Virus record (IMG/VR): IMGVR_UViG_3300021963_000024
Reading direction: 5' to 3' (one strand)
Source of the DNA: a virus
Lineage: Duplodnaviria > Heunggongvirae > Uroviricota > Caudoviricetes
Length of the DNA stretch: 27,097 nt
Positions 3,013 through 11,497 of the stretch are shown piece by piece. The first letter of the stretch is position 1, and each line of letters begins with the position of its first letter. Made by a program: the position numbers and the translations under genes. A model generated the notes under the pieces. That model had not been told where the DNA came from. It saw only the letters and a list, made by a program, of their open reading frames with translations, and did not search any database.

Positions 3013-4140
3013 TTAGTGACTATCACCTACATTATGCTTTTCACTATAAATTAGATAATCTGGGTTGATAACTTTAGCTACCTTTTGTCTTTCCCCCGTA
3101 TGAATTTTAATCACAATTCCTTCTTCAGGTATTTTCGTTCCTTTGATAAAATTATTGAATGTGTATTTGTCTTGCACATCTTGCGACCATTCACCAAAAT
3201 ACAATTGTTCAACATATGGTAACTTTAGAAGTTCTTTGATAAGTAACTTTGAATTGATTGTATCTAAATACTCACCATTCTCTTTTACATCGAATCCTAC
3301 GAACTCAATCTCTTTCAATCCATAATCATATCCCTTTTGAATTCCAGCTCCGTAAATCTCACCATATAAGGTAATACCATCGCCTATGTTAGTAGGGCTG
3401 AACAATTTCACATACTCCCACAACTTCTTTTTAATATCATATTTCTTTTCAATATCATACCAAACATTAGTATCGTAGAAACCTTGTGATTCACTTCCTT
3501 TTTCCACATTGTGAGAGCCAACCACAAATTCGTAATCAATCCATCTATCTGCCACTCCAAAGAATTTCTTCACTTTATCCCACAATGATAATTTGTTTTT
3601 CTTAACAATACCATAACGAGCATTAGTTCCGTGAATCTTACGAGTGATTTCGACTGTGTCCTCTTCGGTAAACATTCCAGGTACATTCTTTAAGTTAGGG
3701 AACTTATAGTAAATGTGGAAATTCGGATTGTCTTGATAACGAATCTTTCTACCACTTGCTAATTGAACGGTCTTAACAGGTGGTTCATATTTGTAAATAT
3801 TCATTACATACATCATATCCTTACCCTCATAGTAATTTTCCATAAAAGGAATATAAGTAATTGGAATAATCAAACATTCCGAGTATACACCTCTTAATTT
3901 CACCGTCCTAACTCTACCACCTTTTCGTAAGTAATTAGTAACACTCATCTTTTCTGAAAGTTCTAAAGGAATAATAGCATCGGTTGTAGCAATCATTACT
4001 AAATCACCAACCTTTTGTTCTCCTTTTTTGGTAATACAATTCCACCCACCAACAACTGCTAATTCAATATTATCAGCACCTTCGATTGGTTTAATCTCAT
4101 TTATTGTTGCTATGTAGCAAACTGAATTTAAGTTTTCCAT
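3013..4140 (-). CDS. ATP-dependent RNA ligase, Rnl2/DRB0094 family
   Basis: N-terminal IKPIEGADNIELAVVGGW; motifs I KIHGTN, III GEIYG, IIIa FVGFDV, IV EGIVIK, V AKVIN. Confidence 0.92.
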   Translation of the reverse strand: MENLNSVCYIATINEIKPIEGADNIELAVVGGWNCITKKGEQKVGDLVMIATTDAIIPLELSEKMSVTNYLRKGGRVRTVKLRGVYSECLIIPITYIPFMENYYEGKDMMYVMNIYKYEPPVKTVQLASGRKIRYQDNPNFHIYYKFPNLKNVPGMFTEEDTVEITRKIHGTNARYGIVKKNKLSLWDKVKKFFGVADRWIDYEFVVGSHNVEKGSESQGFYDTNVWYDIEKKYDIKKKLWEYVKLFSPTNIGDGITLYGEIYGAGIQKGYDYGLKEIEFVGFDVKENGEYLDTINSKLLIKELLKLPYVEQLYFGEWSQDVQDKYTFNNFIKGTKIPEEGIVIKIHTGERQKVAKVINPDYLIYSEKHNVGDSH

Positions 4141-4141
4141 A

Positions 4142-4525
4142 TTATAACTTTACTTCAAATCTATTTTTCATTTGTTCTAATTTCTCTTCAGGTACATTGT
4201 GTATATTTTTAGAACCATGCCTATTCTCTACAATAACTGAATGAACTATATAACCCGCTTCCTTAGCCAATGTATAGTAATAATCCATTTCCCATTCTTG
4301 AGTAAATGTGTTTGATACTACAATTAGTTCTTCACCCTCATCCATCCAAGCTTCAACTACATTTTGGCACCATTCATGTGCGTATCTTAATTTAGTAGCA
4401 TCAAACTTATATTCTCCATCTTTCATAAAGAACATATCAGCCTCAATATGCATTCCACCAAATGATTTTGCCAATGAACTTTTACCACTACCTGGTAACC
4501 CTCTCAATAATATTAACTCTTTCAT
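4142..4525 (-). CDS. P-loop kinase (AAA_33, polynucleotide-kinase/N4BP2-like)
   Basis: Walker A LRGLPGSGKS, EAD, VSNTF, HNVP. Confidence 0.88.
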   Translation of the reverse strand: MKELILLRGLPGSGKSSLAKSFGGMHIEADMFFMKDGEYKFDATKLRYAHEWCQNVVEAWMDEGEELIVVSNTFTQEWEMDYYYTLAKEAGYIVHSVIVENRHGSKNIHNVPEEKLEQMKNRFEVKL

Positions 4526-5178
4526 TACTTATAATTTTCTACAATTTCGTGATGGTCAAAACTGAACATACTTTTAATTGGTTGGTTTCTCATCAAACTT
4601 AATACAGTCCTCATTTCAATTGGATACAATGCGTTACCATCACATCCTACATCCATCATCTTACCCAAACCAATTCTAGTTGCCGGCGGAAAATGAACAT
4701 GTCCGTGTAAATGAATCGCACCTCTTGCCATATTATCCCAACTTGCGATTGGAAAGTGCATTAGAGCAAATCGTTGTTCATCATTTCCAGCGTGTCCATT
4801 TGACCATTTCACATTTAAGTTTAGGTATTTGTTTACTGAACTAAAAAGTGATTGACAACCTTCTCTATCGTTTTCAATGTGATGATCGTGATTACCTGTG
4901 ATGATGTGAACATTCTTACATACGATTTGATTTCTGAATATCTCAATTTGTTCAAATCCACCAAATGACCAATCTCCCAAATGGAATAGAATATCATCTT
5001 GTCCTACAAACTCATTGATATTACCTACTAATGTTGCGTTCATATGTTCTAATGATTTAAACTCTCTACAAGTCACCGGTTCTATCCATCTAGTTGTAGC
5101 GGAACAAATGTTAGCATGGTTGTAATGCGTGTCACTTGTAAACCACAACCGCTGTCCTTTATTTAATGTTAATTTCAT
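4525..5178 (-). CDS. Calcineurin-like metallophosphoesterase
   Basis: SDTHYNH, LGDW, GNHD, MHFP, HGHVH. Confidence 0.9.
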   Translation of the reverse strand: MKLTLNKGQRLWFTSDTHYNHANICSATTRWIEPVTCREFKSLEHMNATLVGNINEFVGQDDILFHLGDWSFGGFEQIEIFRNQIVCKNVHIITGNHDHHIENDREGCQSLFSSVNKYLNLNVKWSNGHAGNDEQRFALMHFPIASWDNMARGAIHLHGHVHFPPATRIGLGKMMDVGCDGNALYPIEMRTVLSLMRNQPIKSMFSFDHHEIVENYK

Positions 5179-6408: not shown

Positions 6409-6864
6409 TTATAATTTAACTAAATGGTCAGCCGCATAAGTTGCGATTGGACCAAGTGTTTTATATCTAACTTCATATCCCATTCCTTCTACTAAACCAA
6501 CTGCTTGTCTGAACACTTCATTTGATTTGTATTTTGGGTCAGGGTTAATATCAATATCAATCCATTTCACTTTTGGTAAACCAGCTTCTCTCATTTTTTC
6601 AGCAACTTCAACCGCATACCATACTTCACTCAACAATCTTACTGAACGTGTTGGTTCTCTTTGGGTTTTCCATTTACTATAAAGAACATGTGCTCCTTTA
6701 CCTTTATGATACAAAGCTACAACGATTGCGTAAATAGTTTTATCGGAAAAGTTTTGTGAATCACAACCAATTAGTATTTCTACATTTTCTTTTCCACTTA
6801 AATACTCTCTGACATATTCAATCATGTCAATTTTTACTCCATCATATAGCCGTTTGTATTCCAT
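6409..6864 (-). CDS. RNase H-like YkuK/DUF458 family protein
   Basis: IGCDSQ, LSEV, IDIDIN, AADH acidic motifs. Confidence 0.8.
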   Translation of the reverse strand: MEYKRLYDGVKIDMIEYVREYLSGKENVEILIGCDSQNFSDKTIYAIVVALYHKGKGAHVLYSKWKTQREPTRSVRLLSEVWYAVEVAEKMREAGLPKVKWIDIDINPDPKYKSNEVFRQAVGLVEGMGYEVRYKTLGPIATYAADHLVKL

Positions 6865-7111: not shown

Positions 7112-7112
7112 G

Positions 7113-7196
7113 CGGAAAGAGTGAGATTCGAACTCACGGACCTTTTGAATCGGCAGTTTAGTAAACTGCTGGTTTAAACCACTCACCCATCTTTCC
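7113..7196 (-). tRNA. trnS: tRNA-Ser(ACT), unusual A34
   Basis: GCAGT-TTACTAA-ACTGC; Ser-type body with GGAAAGA acceptor, long variable arm, G73. Confidence 0.92.
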
Positions 7197-7496: not shown

Positions 7497-8021
7497 TTAT
7501 CTATTTAGTTTGATGATACATTCATCAATCTTATCTCTTAATCTACCACCTACTCCAAAATCACCATCAACCTGAACATGTCTCCATTGTGGAACTTTCA
7601 TCCATTTGAATTGTTTATTCAACTGCATATCATCAATTGAAATCCAATTACTAATTTTATTATCCTTTACCCACTTTTTGATTTCAGCTGCTCTCTCCCA
7701 CTCAATTGCAGGTCTACTCAACTTCATCCATAGGTCCTGATGTGTAGTTATATCAATCAAATTGTGTCCTGCAATTCCGTAGTATTCAAATATTCTTTTC
7801 ATTTGTAAGAAACTAAAATGTTTTCTCCAATCTGAACTTAATACCATCTTTGCATTACTCTCATCCAAAATCTTTTTAAGAGCCTGACAATCTTCTTCAA
7901 CCCAAGCGTATGGTATTTTAAATGTTGATGATGAACCTAAACTCATTTCAACTCTACCATCACCCCACGTTCCCCACGCCAACGGGCCATCTACATCTAT
8001 GAATATTATCTTACGTCTCAT
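7497..8021 (-). CDS. HAD phosphatase (Swiss-Army-Knife RNA-repair HAD type)
   Basis: IFIDVDGPL, LSSDWR, ISIDD. Confidence 0.85.
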   Translation of the reverse strand: MRRKIIFIDVDGPLAWGTWGDGRVEMSLGSSSTFKIPYAWVEEDCQALKKILDESNAKMVLSSDWRKHFSFLQMKRIFEYYGIAGHNLIDITTHQDLWMKLSRPAIEWERAAEIKKWVKDNKISNWISIDDMQLNKQFKWMKVPQWRHVQVDGDFGVGGRLRDKIDECIIKLNR

Positions 8022-8620: not shown

Positions 8621-8635
8621 ATCATTTTGTTTTAG

Positions 8636-8708
8636 TAGCTCCTAAAGGATTCGAACCCTTACTCTAACATCCGTAGTGTTATGTGCTAATCCATTACACC
8701 AAAGAGCC
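8636..8708 (-). tRNA. trnR: tRNA-Arg(ACG)
   Basis: TAACA-CTACGGA-TGTTA. Confidence 0.95.
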
Positions 8709-8713
8709 AATTG

Positions 8714-8784
8714 CACCCACACCAAGATTCGAACTCGGAACAGCGGTTTTGGAGACCGTTATGATACCATTTCACCATGCGGAT
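8714..8784 (-). tRNA. trnW: tRNA-Trp(CCA)
   Basis: CGGT-CTCCAAA-ACCG, G73. Confidence 0.92.
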
Positions 8785-8789
8785 GTATG

Positions 8790-8863
8790 TTGGAATAGTG
8801 GGACTCGAACCTACAACCTTTCGCGTATCAGGCGAATGCTCTAACCAATTGAGCTATATTCCA
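8790..8863 (-). tRNA. trnI: tRNA-Ile(GAT)
   Basis: TTCGC-CTGATAC-GCGAA. Confidence 0.96.
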
Positions 8864-8911
8864 ATTTTGCACTTCCTATTTTCACGCATTGTCTAGTGCG
8901 AACCATATCTG

Positions 8912-8987
8912 TCGGAATAGCAGGATTCGAACCTGCGTGCTCTTCGTCCCAAACGAAGCGAGATAGACCGGACTCCTCTATATTCCG
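8912..8987 (-). tRNA. trnP: tRNA-Pro(TGG)
   Basis: CTTCG-TTTGGGA-CGAAG; C1-G72. Confidence 0.96.
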
Positions 8988-8997
8988 TTATTCAAAG

Positions 8998-9071
8998 TGA
9001 CCCCTTTGAGACTCGAACTCAAAACCCCTACATTAAAAGTGTAGTGCTCTAACCAATTGAGCTAAGAAGTC
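8998..9071 (-). tRNA. trnK: tRNA-Lys(TTT)
   Basis: CTACA-CTTTTAA-TGTAG. Confidence 0.96.
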
Positions 9072-9077
9072 ATTTTG

Positions 9078-9150
9078 TGGTGATAAACAGACTTGAACTG
9101 CTGACACCCGCATCTTCAGTGCGGTGCTCTACCAACTGAGCTACATCACC
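9078..9150 (-). tRNA. trnF: tRNA-Phe(GAA)
   Basis: CCGCA-CTGAAGA-TGCGG. Confidence 0.95.
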
Positions 9151-9159
9151 TATTGTTTG

Positions 9160-9241
9160 TTGGGGTAGACGGACTCGAACCGCCGAACTCAAATGAGAGC
9201 TGATTTACAGTCAGCCGCAATTGCCACTATGCGATACCCCA
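9160..9241 (-). tRNA. trnY: tRNA-Tyr(GTA)
   Basis: GCTGA-CTGTAAA-TCAGC, variable arm. Confidence 0.96.
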
Positions 9242-9246
9242 GTTTG

Positions 9247-9321
9247 TGGGAAATACTGGATTCGAACCAATGACCCTCTCGGTGTAAACGAGATGCTCTA
9301 AACCAACTGAGCTAATTTCCC
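9247..9321 (-). tRNA. trnV: tRNA-Val(TAC)
   Basis: TCTCG-TTTACAC-CGAGA. Confidence 0.96.
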
Positions 9322-9325
9322 TATT

Positions 9326-9400
9326 TGGCGGGGATAAAAGGATTCGAACCTATGACCTAGTCATTAACAGTGACCCGCTCTACCGCTGAGCTATATCCCC
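9326..9400 (-). tRNA. trnN: tRNA-Asn(GTT), CCA encoded
   Basis: GGTCA-CTGTTAA-TGACT, G73-CCA. Confidence 0.96.
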
Positions 9401-9437
9401 AAAACAAAAAACCCCTAACTTTGTGAGTTAGAGGTTT
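9401..9437 (-). terminator. Intrinsic terminator (putative attenuator) abutting tRNA-Asn
   Basis: AAACCTCTAACT-CACAA-AGTTAGGGGTTT then TTTGTTTT and tRNA G1. Confidence 0.85.
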
Positions 9438-9464
9438 CAAATATTGTTCTAAAATTTTTACATT

Positions 9465-9623
9465 TTATCCTACATCAGTGTCCTCTAACATCTTGCTAAT
9501 ATAATCCACCTTGCCTAAATTAAGCGTTGCCGGATTTGATATAGCATTAAACATACTAATCCCCTGCCACTCATTTCTCAATGATTGGTTAGAACAATTT
9601 GTATGTAATGTTAAAGTTTTCAT
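9465..9623 (-). CDS. Putative 52-aa leader peptide of the tRNA-array attenuator
   Basis: MKTLTLHTNCSNQSLRNEWQGISMFNAISNPATLNLGKVDYISKMLEDTDVG after an AT-rich initiation region; contains GTTAGAGG complementary to the terminator 5' arm. Confidence 0.6.
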   Translation of the reverse strand: MKTLTLHTNCSNQSLRNEWQGISMFNAISNPATLNLGKVDYISKMLEDTDVG

Positions 9624-9739
9624 CTCTAATATATATAATATTTTTTTAAATAAAAGTAATTCGATTTCAAAATACGCCACGTCAAGTCATGCTCCGGTTA
9701 ATACTAGCCTCATCAAATTACCATTTAGCCTTTAATAAA

Positions 9740-9950
9740 GAGAGTAATAAGGGGAACGAATACTCTCAATGTAGCGGCCTACTACTTTTATTCGGTAATC
9801 ATATCGTGTTAGATTACGTTTGTTTATAGTAAAAAACTTCCCCCACAAAAACTGACAGTCTTACAACTTTTAGGTTTGATATTTAAAGTCCTAACCTACT
9901 TGTCCACTCACCTGCCAGAACAACATTGGAAAAAGACTACGAAAATCGTA
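9740..9950 (-). ncRNA. Cassette of small hairpins, unknown RNA(s)
   Basis: GAGAGTA/TACTCTC, GTAATC/GATTAC, TAGGTT/AACCTA, ATTACGA/TCGTAGT. Confidence 0.35.
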
Positions 9951-9952
9951 AT

Positions 9953-10048
9953 TGAGCGGGGCCATAGAATCGAACTACATCTTCCCCCCTGGAAGAGGGG
10001 TGTGCTAACCCGTGGGCGAACCCGCGTGGACCATTACACTAACTCCGC
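9953..10048 (-). tRNA. tRNA-Gly(TCC)-like with UUCG hairpin inserted in the D-loop
   Basis: Acceptor GCGGAGT/GCCCCGC with one A-C mismatch; CCCCT-CTTCCAG-GGGGG; D-loop AATGGT-[CCACGCGGG-TTCG-CCCACGGG]-TTA. Confidence 0.75.
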
Positions 10049-10054
10049 TTATAA

Positions 10055-10915
10055 AATGCTGAGATTACACATTTGGGAAGAACGTCCTTTAGAAAGATTA
10101 TTTTTTTCCTTTCTTATCCACACCCTTTTGAGATGTATCCGTTCAGTGTCGGTTAGTAATGCTAACCACTCATTGAGTTACTGACTACTCTCTCATTACT
10201 CTATTTCTTCTACCCTGCCGAGCAAATTCATTCTTGCGGAACTAGAAACTTTTCGTAAGAATCACAGACCACTTGCGGTGGTATCGTGGCAATGGACAAC
10301 CCATTACTATGTAGACACCTTTCGTCCGTAACTGGCAAGCACTTAAGCTTAAAATTGATTTATAGTTTGCACCTAAAGCAAATTTGAGTTTGGTTTGTAG
10401 ATTGTTCAGGTAGTGGCTTGCCAACCAGCTCCCCCATCTTTTGAACGAGAGAATACTAAACTACCCAATGTGTTATCGTCAACACCATTTTTTAAGTCAT
10501 CTTCATTAATAGGGATTGGTGTCCCACATTAAAGGTTAATAACAACACCACTTGTACATTAACATACCTTACGTCCTTTCGGATAGCTTGGTTTTAAGAC
10601 CACTTTGAAATTGAATACCGCAATGATATATAGTGATTAGCCACATACTTCTTACTGATATTCTATGGGTTATTCTTATTGTTCTTCCGAACTCAACTAG
10701 AGATTCTACATATCCCCAGTCACCCAAACCCTTCCGATATAGTGTTACCCTTTCGTACAAGGCTCAGATGATATCCCACTTGCCTACTCAAGCACCATTG
10801 CTGATGCCGCAAGAATACTAAACCAAGCATTCTCACTTTATCCTACTTTCGTAGTTTATTTAACCACCATAGGCGGCGGTTGTTTACTATGTAGGACGAG
10901 CCTACTATGTAAAAT
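10055..10915 (-). ncRNA. Giant structured RNA, probably GOLLD; ends approximate
   Basis: ~850 nt without credible ORF, GC above the flanks, many hairpins with GNRA loops (CTAC-GAAA-GTAG, GCATCA-GCAA-TGGTGC, TCC-GAAA-GGA), long-range complements; beside phage tRNAs as known for GOLLD. Confidence 0.65.
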
Positions 10916-10927
10916 ATTTTCAATCTT

Positions 10928-10937
10928 TTAAAGAACT
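10928..10937 (-). promoter_or_regulatory. boxA-like antitermination element
   Basis: AGTTCTTTAA just before the giant RNA, preceded by an ATTGGGG/CCCCGAT hairpin. Confidence 0.5.
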
Positions 10938-10994
10938 AATCGGGGAATCTTTACAACTTACATTAGTAAGAATATTTACAACCCCAATGTTTAA

Positions 10995-11026
10995 TAAATA
11001 TAGTAAAAAAAAATTAATCTACCAAA
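10995..11026 (-). promoter_or_regulatory. Bacteroidetes-type promoter for the giant RNA unit
   Basis: TTTG-N20-TATATTTA. Confidence 0.75.
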
Positions 11027-11103
11027 TTTATTTATTTTTTATTCAAAATCAACTACCCGAGTATCTTTCATCGCCTATAAGGTCATATATCATTTGAACA
11101 TTG

Positions 11104-11135
11104 TAAATATAAGGAAAGTTTTTTAAACTACCAAA
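11104..11135 (-). promoter_or_regulatory. Bacteroidetes-type promoter
   Basis: TTTG-N20-TATATTTA; near copy of 11353-11384. Confidence 0.75.
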
Positions 11136-11225
11136 TATTTTTTAAAATAAGTTATTAAGGTATCCGGCTTTATTTTTTTCACATAGTCGGTTTTATTACT
11201 ATTGGCTTCAACCTTAATTACTTTG

Positions 11226-11298
11226 TTGCGGGGGATGGATTCGAACCACCGACCTTTAGGTTATGAGCCTAACGAGCTACCGCTGCTACTACCCCACG
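11226..11298 (-). tRNA. trnM: Initiator tRNA-fMet(CAT)
   Basis: C1-A72 mismatch; TTAGG-CTCATAA-CCTAA (two rather than three G-C pairs). Confidence 0.9.
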
Positions 11299-11352
11299 AT
11301 ATAATAATATAAATAAAGAACTAAACTAAATATGTTTTTCACATTTGAATAT

Positions 11353-11384
11353 CAAATATACGAAAAGTTTTTTAAACTACCAAA
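11353..11384 (-). promoter_or_regulatory. Consensus Bacteroidetes promoter for tRNA-fMet
   Basis: TTTG-N20-TATATTTG; AGTTCTTT at 11315-11322 downstream. Confidence 0.85.
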
Positions 11385-11497
11385 TATTTTTTAAAAAATG
11401 TGGATAACTTTCTTAAGTCATTGAAAATCAATAAGTTATAACTCATTGATAATCAACGCCTTATTGACAATCAATACTTTACATATTAGCGTTTTTG

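Follow-up and report, generated by a model that had tools for sequence, protein, structure and literature searches.

A putative leader-peptide attenuator containing all 20 amino acids in front of a phage tRNA array

The timing of tRNA-array expression is an open question in the work on phage tRNAs and on host defences by anticodon nucleases. It is raised by a locus of the IMG/VR phage record IMGVR_UViG_3300021963_000024 (Caudoviricetes; a giant phage from a lake; 238 kb, 31% G + C), in which a short open reading frame (ORF), here called the leader ORF, and an intrinsic terminator hairpin stand in front of an array of tRNA genes. The stretch that was analyzed (the window) comprises 27,097 nt of this record, with every gene on the minus strand. 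In transcriptional order, the tmRNA, a tRNA-Met, a GOLLD RNA, a tRNA-like element and a spacer of ~330 nt are followed by the leader ORF with its hairpin and by 25 tRNA genes (Table 1).

What, then, decides whether an RNA polymerase arriving at this hairpin continues into the tRNA genes? The comparison with related loci makes it probable that the region is a ribosome-mediated (leader-peptide) attenuator, in which the sensor is an ORF holding every amino acid and the output consists of the phage tRNA genes. At the level of sequence, the comparison demonstrates a conserved ORF, selection on its composition, and three conserved alternative helices together with their geometry. An attenuator at this place had been proposed in a first-pass annotation, which was made from the letters of the window alone, and is now supported by comparative evidence.

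Conservation of the leader ORF and of its position

A tblastn search with the leader peptide found relatives in 15 contigs of IMG/VR and 80 of metagenomes, most of the samples being from freshwater, estuaries or the sea. After deduplication, the ~90 related loci yielded 63 distinct intact leader ORFs of 31–53 codons with the common start MKTL, so that the conservation of the ORF, which the first-pass annotation had named as a check of its proposal, could be verified. All 63 variants of this AT-rich sequence keep the ATG and an open frame, insertions and deletions are multiples of three or compensated frameshifts, and codons 1–8 vary at synonymous sites only. A 71-codon version starting from a GTG at 9680, the other forward frames and an ORF on the opposite strand (9511-9735) are not conserved in the relatives.

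The surroundings of the ORF recur as well. In the seven loci that were scanned with Rfam, GOLLD is always followed by a spacer of 180–600 nt, the ORF, the hairpin with a T-tract, and a tRNA array. The first gene after the terminator is tRNA-Asn(GTT) in 58 of 59 loci, and its start is located 4–12 nt past the T-run in 57 of 59, which therefore leaves no room for a promoter before this gene. In the window, the T-tract TTTTTTGTTTT ends at G1 of tRNA-Asn, and the stop codon of the ORF lies 26 nt from the extended stem of the hairpin and 30 nt from its core 5′ arm. These values agree with the first-pass annotation, which had listed the hairpin and T-tract ending at G1 of tRNA-Asn, the lack of an intervening promoter, and a 52-codon ORF with its stop about 27 nt upstream. 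Besides this hairpin, no other terminator-like site was found on the minus strand between 5000 and 13000. A promoter between the stop codon and the terminator, where AATATTTG of the window resembles a −7 box, was considered and rejected, as this sequence is not conserved in the relatives.

Amino-acid and tRNA-species content of the leader peptides

The leader peptide of the window contains all 20 amino acids, with C, W, H, Y, F and P occurring once each. It is encoded by 36 distinct codons, whereas 52-codon windows from 205 genes of the phage have 26.3 on average (P(≥36) = 0.001), and the G + C content at third codon positions is 0.35 vs. 0.20 in the phage genes. The amino-acid and codon counts and the many G/C-ending codons had been remarked upon in the first-pass annotation. 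Taken singly (P about 0.001 to 0.03 each), these features are suggestive; they become more than chance because they are conserved in the relatives.

The set of 20 amino acids is complete in 61 of the 63 leaders, among them forms of 38–41 residues that lack the C-terminal half of the long forms. Among the phage's own proteins, this holds for 0.11–0.25% of 38–41-residue windows and 1.8% of 52-residue windows, and only two of 537 small ORFs of the genome have all 20 amino acids. By shuffling of alignment columns, the fraction of complete leaders was decreased from 96.7% to 43% (maximum 62% in 2000 shuffles), and the property therefore rests on compensation between positions. This can be followed for individual residues. 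Cysteine, which makes up 0.8% of the proteome, occurs exactly once in 47 of 60 leader peptides; none of them lacks it, and it is found in four different columns of the alignment. In the short forms without the VDY motif, tyrosine is found at position 11 and valine at position 17 instead, in the N-terminal half. With the content kept and compensated when residues move, the complete amino-acid set of the leader is evidently under selection, as judged from these alignments.

The leaders sample tRNA species as well. The codons of the window leader are read by 23–24 of the 25 tRNA species of the phage (P = 0.006–0.009), and for Leu, Arg, Ser, Gly and Ile, codons of both isoacceptor classes are enriched across the leaders. 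Leu CTN codons are found in 97% of the leaders vs. 42–51% in the null set, Arg CGN in 60% vs. 17–21% and Ser AGY in 100% vs. 49–59%; all ten isoacceptor classes are present in 22 of 63 leaders vs. 0.2–1.5% of the null set. The earlier idea that the leader samples all codons is thus to be narrowed: it holds for the amino acids and nearly all phage tRNA species, but only 36 of the 61 codons are used. In 53 of 60 leaders, the complete set of 20 amino acids is located upstream of segment 2, the antiterminator strand described below.

Alternative helices of the leader RNA

Four segments of the leader RNA can pair with each other in three ways, namely 1:2 (putative anti-antiterminator), 2:3 (antiterminator) and 3:4 (terminator). 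In the window, GTTAGAGG of segment 2 is the perfect complement of CCTCTAAC of segment 3, from which a mutually exclusive antiterminator had been deduced at first pass. The 8-mer occurs three times in the window vs. 0.36 expected, a number that was reached in none of 100 shuffles, and the leader region of 240 nt folds with z = −5.8 compared to shuffled sequences.

Between lineages, the four segments change jointly, which bears out the covariation of both helices that had been named as a second check. In one set of lineages, segments 1 to 4 read CTTTAAC, GTTAGAGG, CCTCTAAC and GTTAG[AG]GG, in another CTCTTAAC, GTTAAGGG, CCCCTTAAC and GTTAAGGGG, in a third CTCTAAC, GTTAGGG, CCCTAAC and GTTAGGG, and in a fourth C[CT]TTGAC, GTC[AG]GGG, CCCTGAC and GT[TC][AG]GGG. 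In an alignment of 61 sequences, 98.1% of the cells of the 2:3 antiterminator are paired; both sides have changed in four of its eight pairs, and 0 of 500 shuffles reached that. The 3:4 terminator is paired in 93% and the 1:2 helix in 86.7% of the cells, the latter value being lowered by 1-nt alignment shifts. This helix comprises 5–11 bp in each homologue and shows 14 cells with double changes. The nucleotides are retained at the expense of the peptide: segment 2 codes for L-E, L-G or S-G depending on the lineage with its pairing intact, and a +1/−1 frameshift over codons 3–5 keeps the nucleotides of segment 1 while the peptide changes from KTLTL to KNFNL.

The distances to the stop codon are conserved as well. 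In 60 variants, 11–17 nt separate the end of segment 2 from the stop codon that follows it. In the variant L094, which has a leader of 31 codons and 18 amino acids, segment 2 (GTTAGGGG) starts 2 nt after the stop codon. In all variants, including L094, the footprint of a ribosome that has arrived at the stop codon is predicted to include segment 2. Segment 3 begins 23–37 nt after the stop codon, and the terminator would therefore be beyond the reach of this ribosome.

Folding predictions are in line with this arrangement. For the full transcript, the state with 1:2 and 3:4 has −57.8 kcal/mol vs. −53.5 kcal/mol for the 2:3 state, a gap of 4.3 kcal/mol, and the minimum free energy structure at full length includes the 1:2 helix. 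For the nascent RNA before segment 4 is made, the predicted fold is 2:3, and with the footprint at the stop codon blocked, segment 3 is released. Without any hint, RNAalifold predicts the 2:3 helix and an invariant ACAUAC/GUAUGU hairpin (P1), which may serve as an RNA polymerase pause or synchronising hairpin. No double-sided changes were found in P1, so that covariation neither supports nor refutes it.

Proposed mechanism and reach of control

The mechanism itself, i.e., translation of the ORF, stalling of the ribosome, readthrough and the identity of the sensed signal, is what we infer from these data. Transcription would enter from a local TATA-like box or by readthrough from the strong GOLLD promoters upstream, both being equally possible. 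Of 55 distinct upstream regions, 54 have a TATA[CT][TA]T-like box 7–21 nt 5′ of the ATG; the TATATAT box of the window may act as a −10-like promoter element, in which case the mRNA would be nearly leaderless, or may be no more than an A/T-rich region for initiation.

Without translation, segment 1 would pair with segment 2, the 3:4 terminator would form, and transcription would stop at the T-tract before tRNA-Asn. During fast translation, the lead ribosome at segment 2 or at the stop codon would mask segment 2, and again the terminator would form. A delay within approximately the first 40 codons (the first ~27 in the short forms) would leave segment 2 free, while initiating or queued ribosomes cover segment 1. 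The free segment 2 would then capture segment 3 ahead of the synthesis of segment 4, and the polymerase would read into the tRNA block. The first-pass annotation had assumed that a stall anywhere frees the antiterminator. This has to be given up, since only a stall upstream of about codon 41 could free segment 2, and a stall on or after this codon should favour termination.

Because the sensor contains all 20 amino acids and codons for nearly every tRNA species of the phage, a shortage of any charged tRNA would raise tRNA synthesis, and a sufficient tRNA supply would shut the array off. The circuit would constitute a negative-feedback control of tRNA supply, with anticodon nucleases, decay of the host tRNA pool and codon-usage mismatch as possible sources of the shortage. 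In its widest form, which in our judgement has even chances of being right, the element would be a universal controller: one test ORF would report the decoding speed of 20 amino acids and nearly every phage tRNA species, and any depletion of host tRNAs, e.g., by anticodon nucleases, would switch on a replacement set of tRNAs along with the embedded RNA-repair genes.

The leader element would directly gate only the first block of nine tRNAs. As no other terminator was detected, three further ORFs, one of which encodes a HAD_SAK_2 RNA-repair phosphatase, and the second tRNA block are probably gated as well. The earlier claim that the element switches on the tRNA array thus has to be narrowed to these parts; the last block has its own copy of the strong promoter repeat.

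Weighing of the evidence and of other explanations

Several observations weigh against the attenuator. The third tRNA block has its own strong promoter, and the whole array is hence not under its control. The 1:2 helix is short, with ~120 nt in the loop between its two strands. The homologues are related to each other, so that the shuffle controls overstate the support; on a tree calculated from non-helix columns, there are only ~2–3 independent changes per covarying pair, and with so few events a sign test did not attain significance. Furthermore, the ratio of nonsynonymous to synonymous polymorphism (pN/pS) of the leader ORF is ~0.47, and this value as well as the invariant stretches MKTLTLH, W.G..MF and LGKVDY of the long forms also fit a functional peptide. 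The conservation of the peptide is explained in part by the RNA helices and by single-copy residues, which cannot change without the loss of that amino acid.

An ordinary small protein gene with its own terminator would share several of these features. In this case, the peptide would have its own function, the hairpin would end the mRNA of the gene and the GOLLD transcript, and the tRNAs would be transcribed by constitutive readthrough. The conserved ORF, a pN/pS below 1 and the invariant residues agree with this explanation, as does the fact that the hairpin is the only terminator-like site on the minus strand in the block of non-coding RNAs. However, the short forms, which lack the entire C-terminal half, still have all 20 amino acids, segments 1 and 2 hold their nucleotides while the amino acids change, and the complement within the ORF tracks the 5′ arm of the terminator better than the 3′ arm does (98.1% vs. 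93%). Searches of Pfam and PHROG with the leader peptide gave no family match, and AlphaFold2 on a shallow alignment of 13 sequences resulted in a predicted local distance difference test score (pLDDT) of 50.7 without secondary structure, i.e., no confident fold, which is weak evidence. Altogether, a mere protein gene appears improbable. More improbable still is an element that acts as RNA only, for instance a structured 3′ part of a GOLLD-tRNA precursor, or else a riboswitch-like or processing element, in which the open frame is incidental. It would account for the strong folding, the invariant internal hairpin and the constant position downstream of GOLLD, but not for a frame that is open in 63 of 63 variants of AT-rich sequence, an invariant start codon, a stop codon fixed relative to segment 2, codons 1–8 varying at synonymous sites only, and a selected amino-acid diversity. 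Neither T-box nor any other Rfam family was matched by the leader, and more than 430 nt separate it from the end of the GOLLD model at 10056.

It is harder to separate the attenuator from a generic sensor of translation capacity, as the architecture of the two is identical. Such a sensor would, in the manner of the bmrB or mef/msr leaders, respond to any slowing of ribosomes, be it by host shut-off, by ribosome-targeting toxins or antibiotics or by a shortage of ribosomes, and the complete amino-acid content would be secondary. Leaders sensing general stalling are known from bmrB (PMC4191407) and mef/mel (PMC4335068). A generic sensor needs no complete amino-acid set, no relocated single-copy Cys and Tyr and no representation of both isoacceptor classes, all of which are evidently selected here, and the choice of tRNA genes as the regulated output suggests that tRNA supply is what the leader senses. 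For these reasons it is regarded as rather unlikely to be the whole explanation, although a generic response and one to tRNA supply overlap and are not mutually exclusive.

Comparison with known systems

Leader-peptide attenuation is a textbook mechanism. To our knowledge, such attenuators have been described for amino-acid operons, for some aminoacyl-tRNA synthetase genes and for resistance genes, and the sensor always responds to one or a few amino acids or to drugs. With trpL, hisL, leuL, thrL, pheL and the multivalent ilvGMEDA leader, the phage element shares a short leader ORF and four segments with mutually exclusive 2:3 and 3:4 helices and a putative 1:2 helix. As in the trp/his class, the 3:4 helix and a T-tract make up an intrinsic terminator, segment 2 would be masked once a ribosome has reached the stop codon, and an upstream stall would free the antiterminator. 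The structural features of the trpL/hisL type, i.e., a conserved short ORF upstream, an intrinsic terminator, a 2:3 antiterminator and the placement of the stop codon, are present, whereas two defining ones, tandem regulatory codons and a downstream amino-acid operon, are missing. In place of tandem codons, the phage leader has every amino acid, mostly once or twice, and its output is tRNA genes and not biosynthetic enzymes. Segment 1 is located at codons 3–5, so that ~40 codons between segments 1 and 2 form the sensor, and segment 2 lies within the ORF, except in L094, which is laid out like a classical trp leader. There is no sequence homology to trp/his leaders.

T-box elements recognize a single uncharged tRNA by direct binding, work without translation, and control the genes for one amino acid. 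Like the element proposed here, they couple tRNA charging to terminator readthrough via an antiterminator. No T-box was matched: an Rfam search of 9300-11400 at E ≤ 1 gave only GOLLD, tRNAs and a chance match to SmY. A T-box-like pairing with tRNA-Asn, by GUU in segment 2 and AAC in segment 3, was rejected, as the segments become GUC and GAC in relatives in which the tRNA stays Asn.

The leaders of bmrB-bmrCD of Bacillus subtilis (PMC4191407) and mef/mel (PMC4335068) likewise have ~50 codons and alternative stem-loops, and readthrough is brought about by general ribosome stalling and not by the lack of a single amino acid. In the case of bmrB, the leader has to be translated, and the outcome is influenced by rare codons (PMC4191407). 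The two leaders differ from the phage leader in that their signal is a drug that targets the ribosome and their output an efflux or protection gene, and that selection for complete amino-acid content has not been described for them; the phage leader is phage-borne and its output consists of tRNAs. GOLLD (RF02032) has been reported to sit near tRNA islands (bioRxiv 10.1101/2024.12.08.627333), and the word "terminator" is not used in that paper; the leader (9623-9401) lies outside the covariance-model match (10468-10056). A full-text literature search turned up no account of tRNA genes, whether of phages or of other origin, that are controlled by a leader peptide or an attenuator, nor of such an element beside GOLLD.

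If true, this would be the first case in which decoding speed feeds back on the transcription of tRNA genes, and it would account for the timing with which large phages express their tRNA arrays. The element is compact (~220 nt) and leads to the prediction that each of the twenty single-amino-acid limitations induces readthrough; it could be of use as a natural biosensor for translation capacity. As it always stands behind GOLLD, the element offers a new handle on the function of this RNA and might link this function to tRNA supply.

Genome setting and neighbouring elements

The coordinates of the leader element and of the neighbouring features are summarized in Table 1.

Table 1. Features of the leader element and its surroundings in the window.
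Feature	Position	Strand	Description
TATATAT box	9631..9637	−	7 nt upstream of ATG
Leader ORF	9465..9623	−	ATG 9623, TAA 9467-9465, 52 codons + stop
Segment 1	9610..9616	−	CTTTAAC, codons 3–5, ORF nt 8–14; predicted to lie inside the footprint of the initiating ribosome; putative anti-antiterminator partner of segment 2
Hairpin P1	9551..9606	−	ACAUAC (9606-9601) with GUAUGU (9556-9551), then U-rich sequence; RNAalifold consensus
Segment 2	9482..9489	−	GTTAGAGG, codons 45–48; 7–8 nt across leaders; antiterminator strand, ends 14 nt before stop
Terminator hairpin	9438-9408	−	13 pairs, 4 of them G-C, loop of 5; T-tract TTTTTTGTTTT 9411-9401
Segment 3	9427..9434	−	CCTCTAAC, 5′ arm of the terminator, common to the antiterminator
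Segment 4	9419-9412	−	GTTAGGGG, 3′ arm of the terminator
L094 variant leader	1201-1296 of metagenome contig Ga0129333_10029833		31 codons, 18 amino acids
tmRNA	11867-11495	−	Unusual predicted tag DEKSTMTYDDLMAFVGMDYAVAA
tRNA-Met	11298-11225	−	
GOLLD RNA	10468-10056	−	Rfam RF02032, 278.6 bits; variable 5′ half upstream, probably to ~10950
tRNA-like element	9944-10048	−	Directly after GOLLD; acceptor and T-arm-like sequence, inserted hairpin
tRNA genes	9400 to 5196	−	25 genes, a few ORFs interspersed
First tRNA block	8635..9400	−	9 genes: Asn(GTT), Val, Tyr, Phe, Lys, Pro, Ile, Trp, Arg(ACG)
tRNA-Ser	7112-7196	−	Anticodon ACT (A34)
Last (third) tRNA block, tRNA-Glu block	6356-5196	−	Own copy of the strong promoter repeat at 6418-6372
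RNA-repair-type genes	7500-8021, 6412-6864, 4528-5178, 4145-4525, 3016-4140	−	HAD_SAK_2 phosphatase, RNaseH-like protein, metallophosphoesterase, AAA_33 kinase, RNA ligase with OB domain
Strong promoter-like repeat	11947-11905, 11391-11350, 11142-11100, 11033-10995, 6418-6372	−	TTTGGTAG, ~18 nt, TATATTT[G/A]

In the whole 238-kb genome, the promoter-like repeat is found only before the tmRNA (variant copy), tRNA-Met, GOLLD (two copies) and the tRNA-Glu block. Its sequence, TTTGGTAG with TATATTT, fits the −33/−7 pattern of Bacteroidota promoters, and no copy of this repeat stands before the leader ORF. Together with a weak protein match to Flavobacterium phages, these Bacteroidota-type repeats are mere hints of the host. 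In a scan of genome contigs, one matching contig of 1.6 kb was part of a metagenome-assembled genome labelled Cyanobium; it is probably binned phage DNA and gives no host assignment. By blastn, 9380-10100 had no match among the INPHARED phage records.

Contigs from four lake metatranscriptome runs cover GOLLD (9964-10956) at high depth. A further RNA-library contig of 228 nt with identical ends was found in four lake metatranscriptomes at a depth of 140–450 and corresponds to 9689-9915 of the window, between the tRNA-like element and the leader; a conserved block AACC[AG]GAGCATGACTTG..GGCGTATTTTGAA spans its end. A structured RNA in 9660-9945 is unsupported (z = −0.55), and 9689-9915 has no Rfam match. 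The contigs do not span 9436-9669, and as contigs cannot show transcript ends or absence, they are uninformative on the leader. The tRNA-like element was called neither by ARAGORN nor by Rfam; at its place, the relatives L008 (2611-2681) and L011 (2415-2485) have a callable tRNA.

All 26 tRNAs of the phage, counted over the whole record, are located in the window. They include the tRNA-Ser with the anticodon ACT, and no tRNA-Ser(GCT) was found in the phage. The RNA-repair-type genes sit within the tRNA array and just behind it, which fits a setting where tRNA damage is expected. At the start of the array, a motif GTTC[TA]TTGACAT[AT][TG]TGG recurs after tRNA-Asn in the relatives L002 (~3310-3330), L005 and L011, and after the terminator in L013; it resembles the boxA-like AGTTCTTT.

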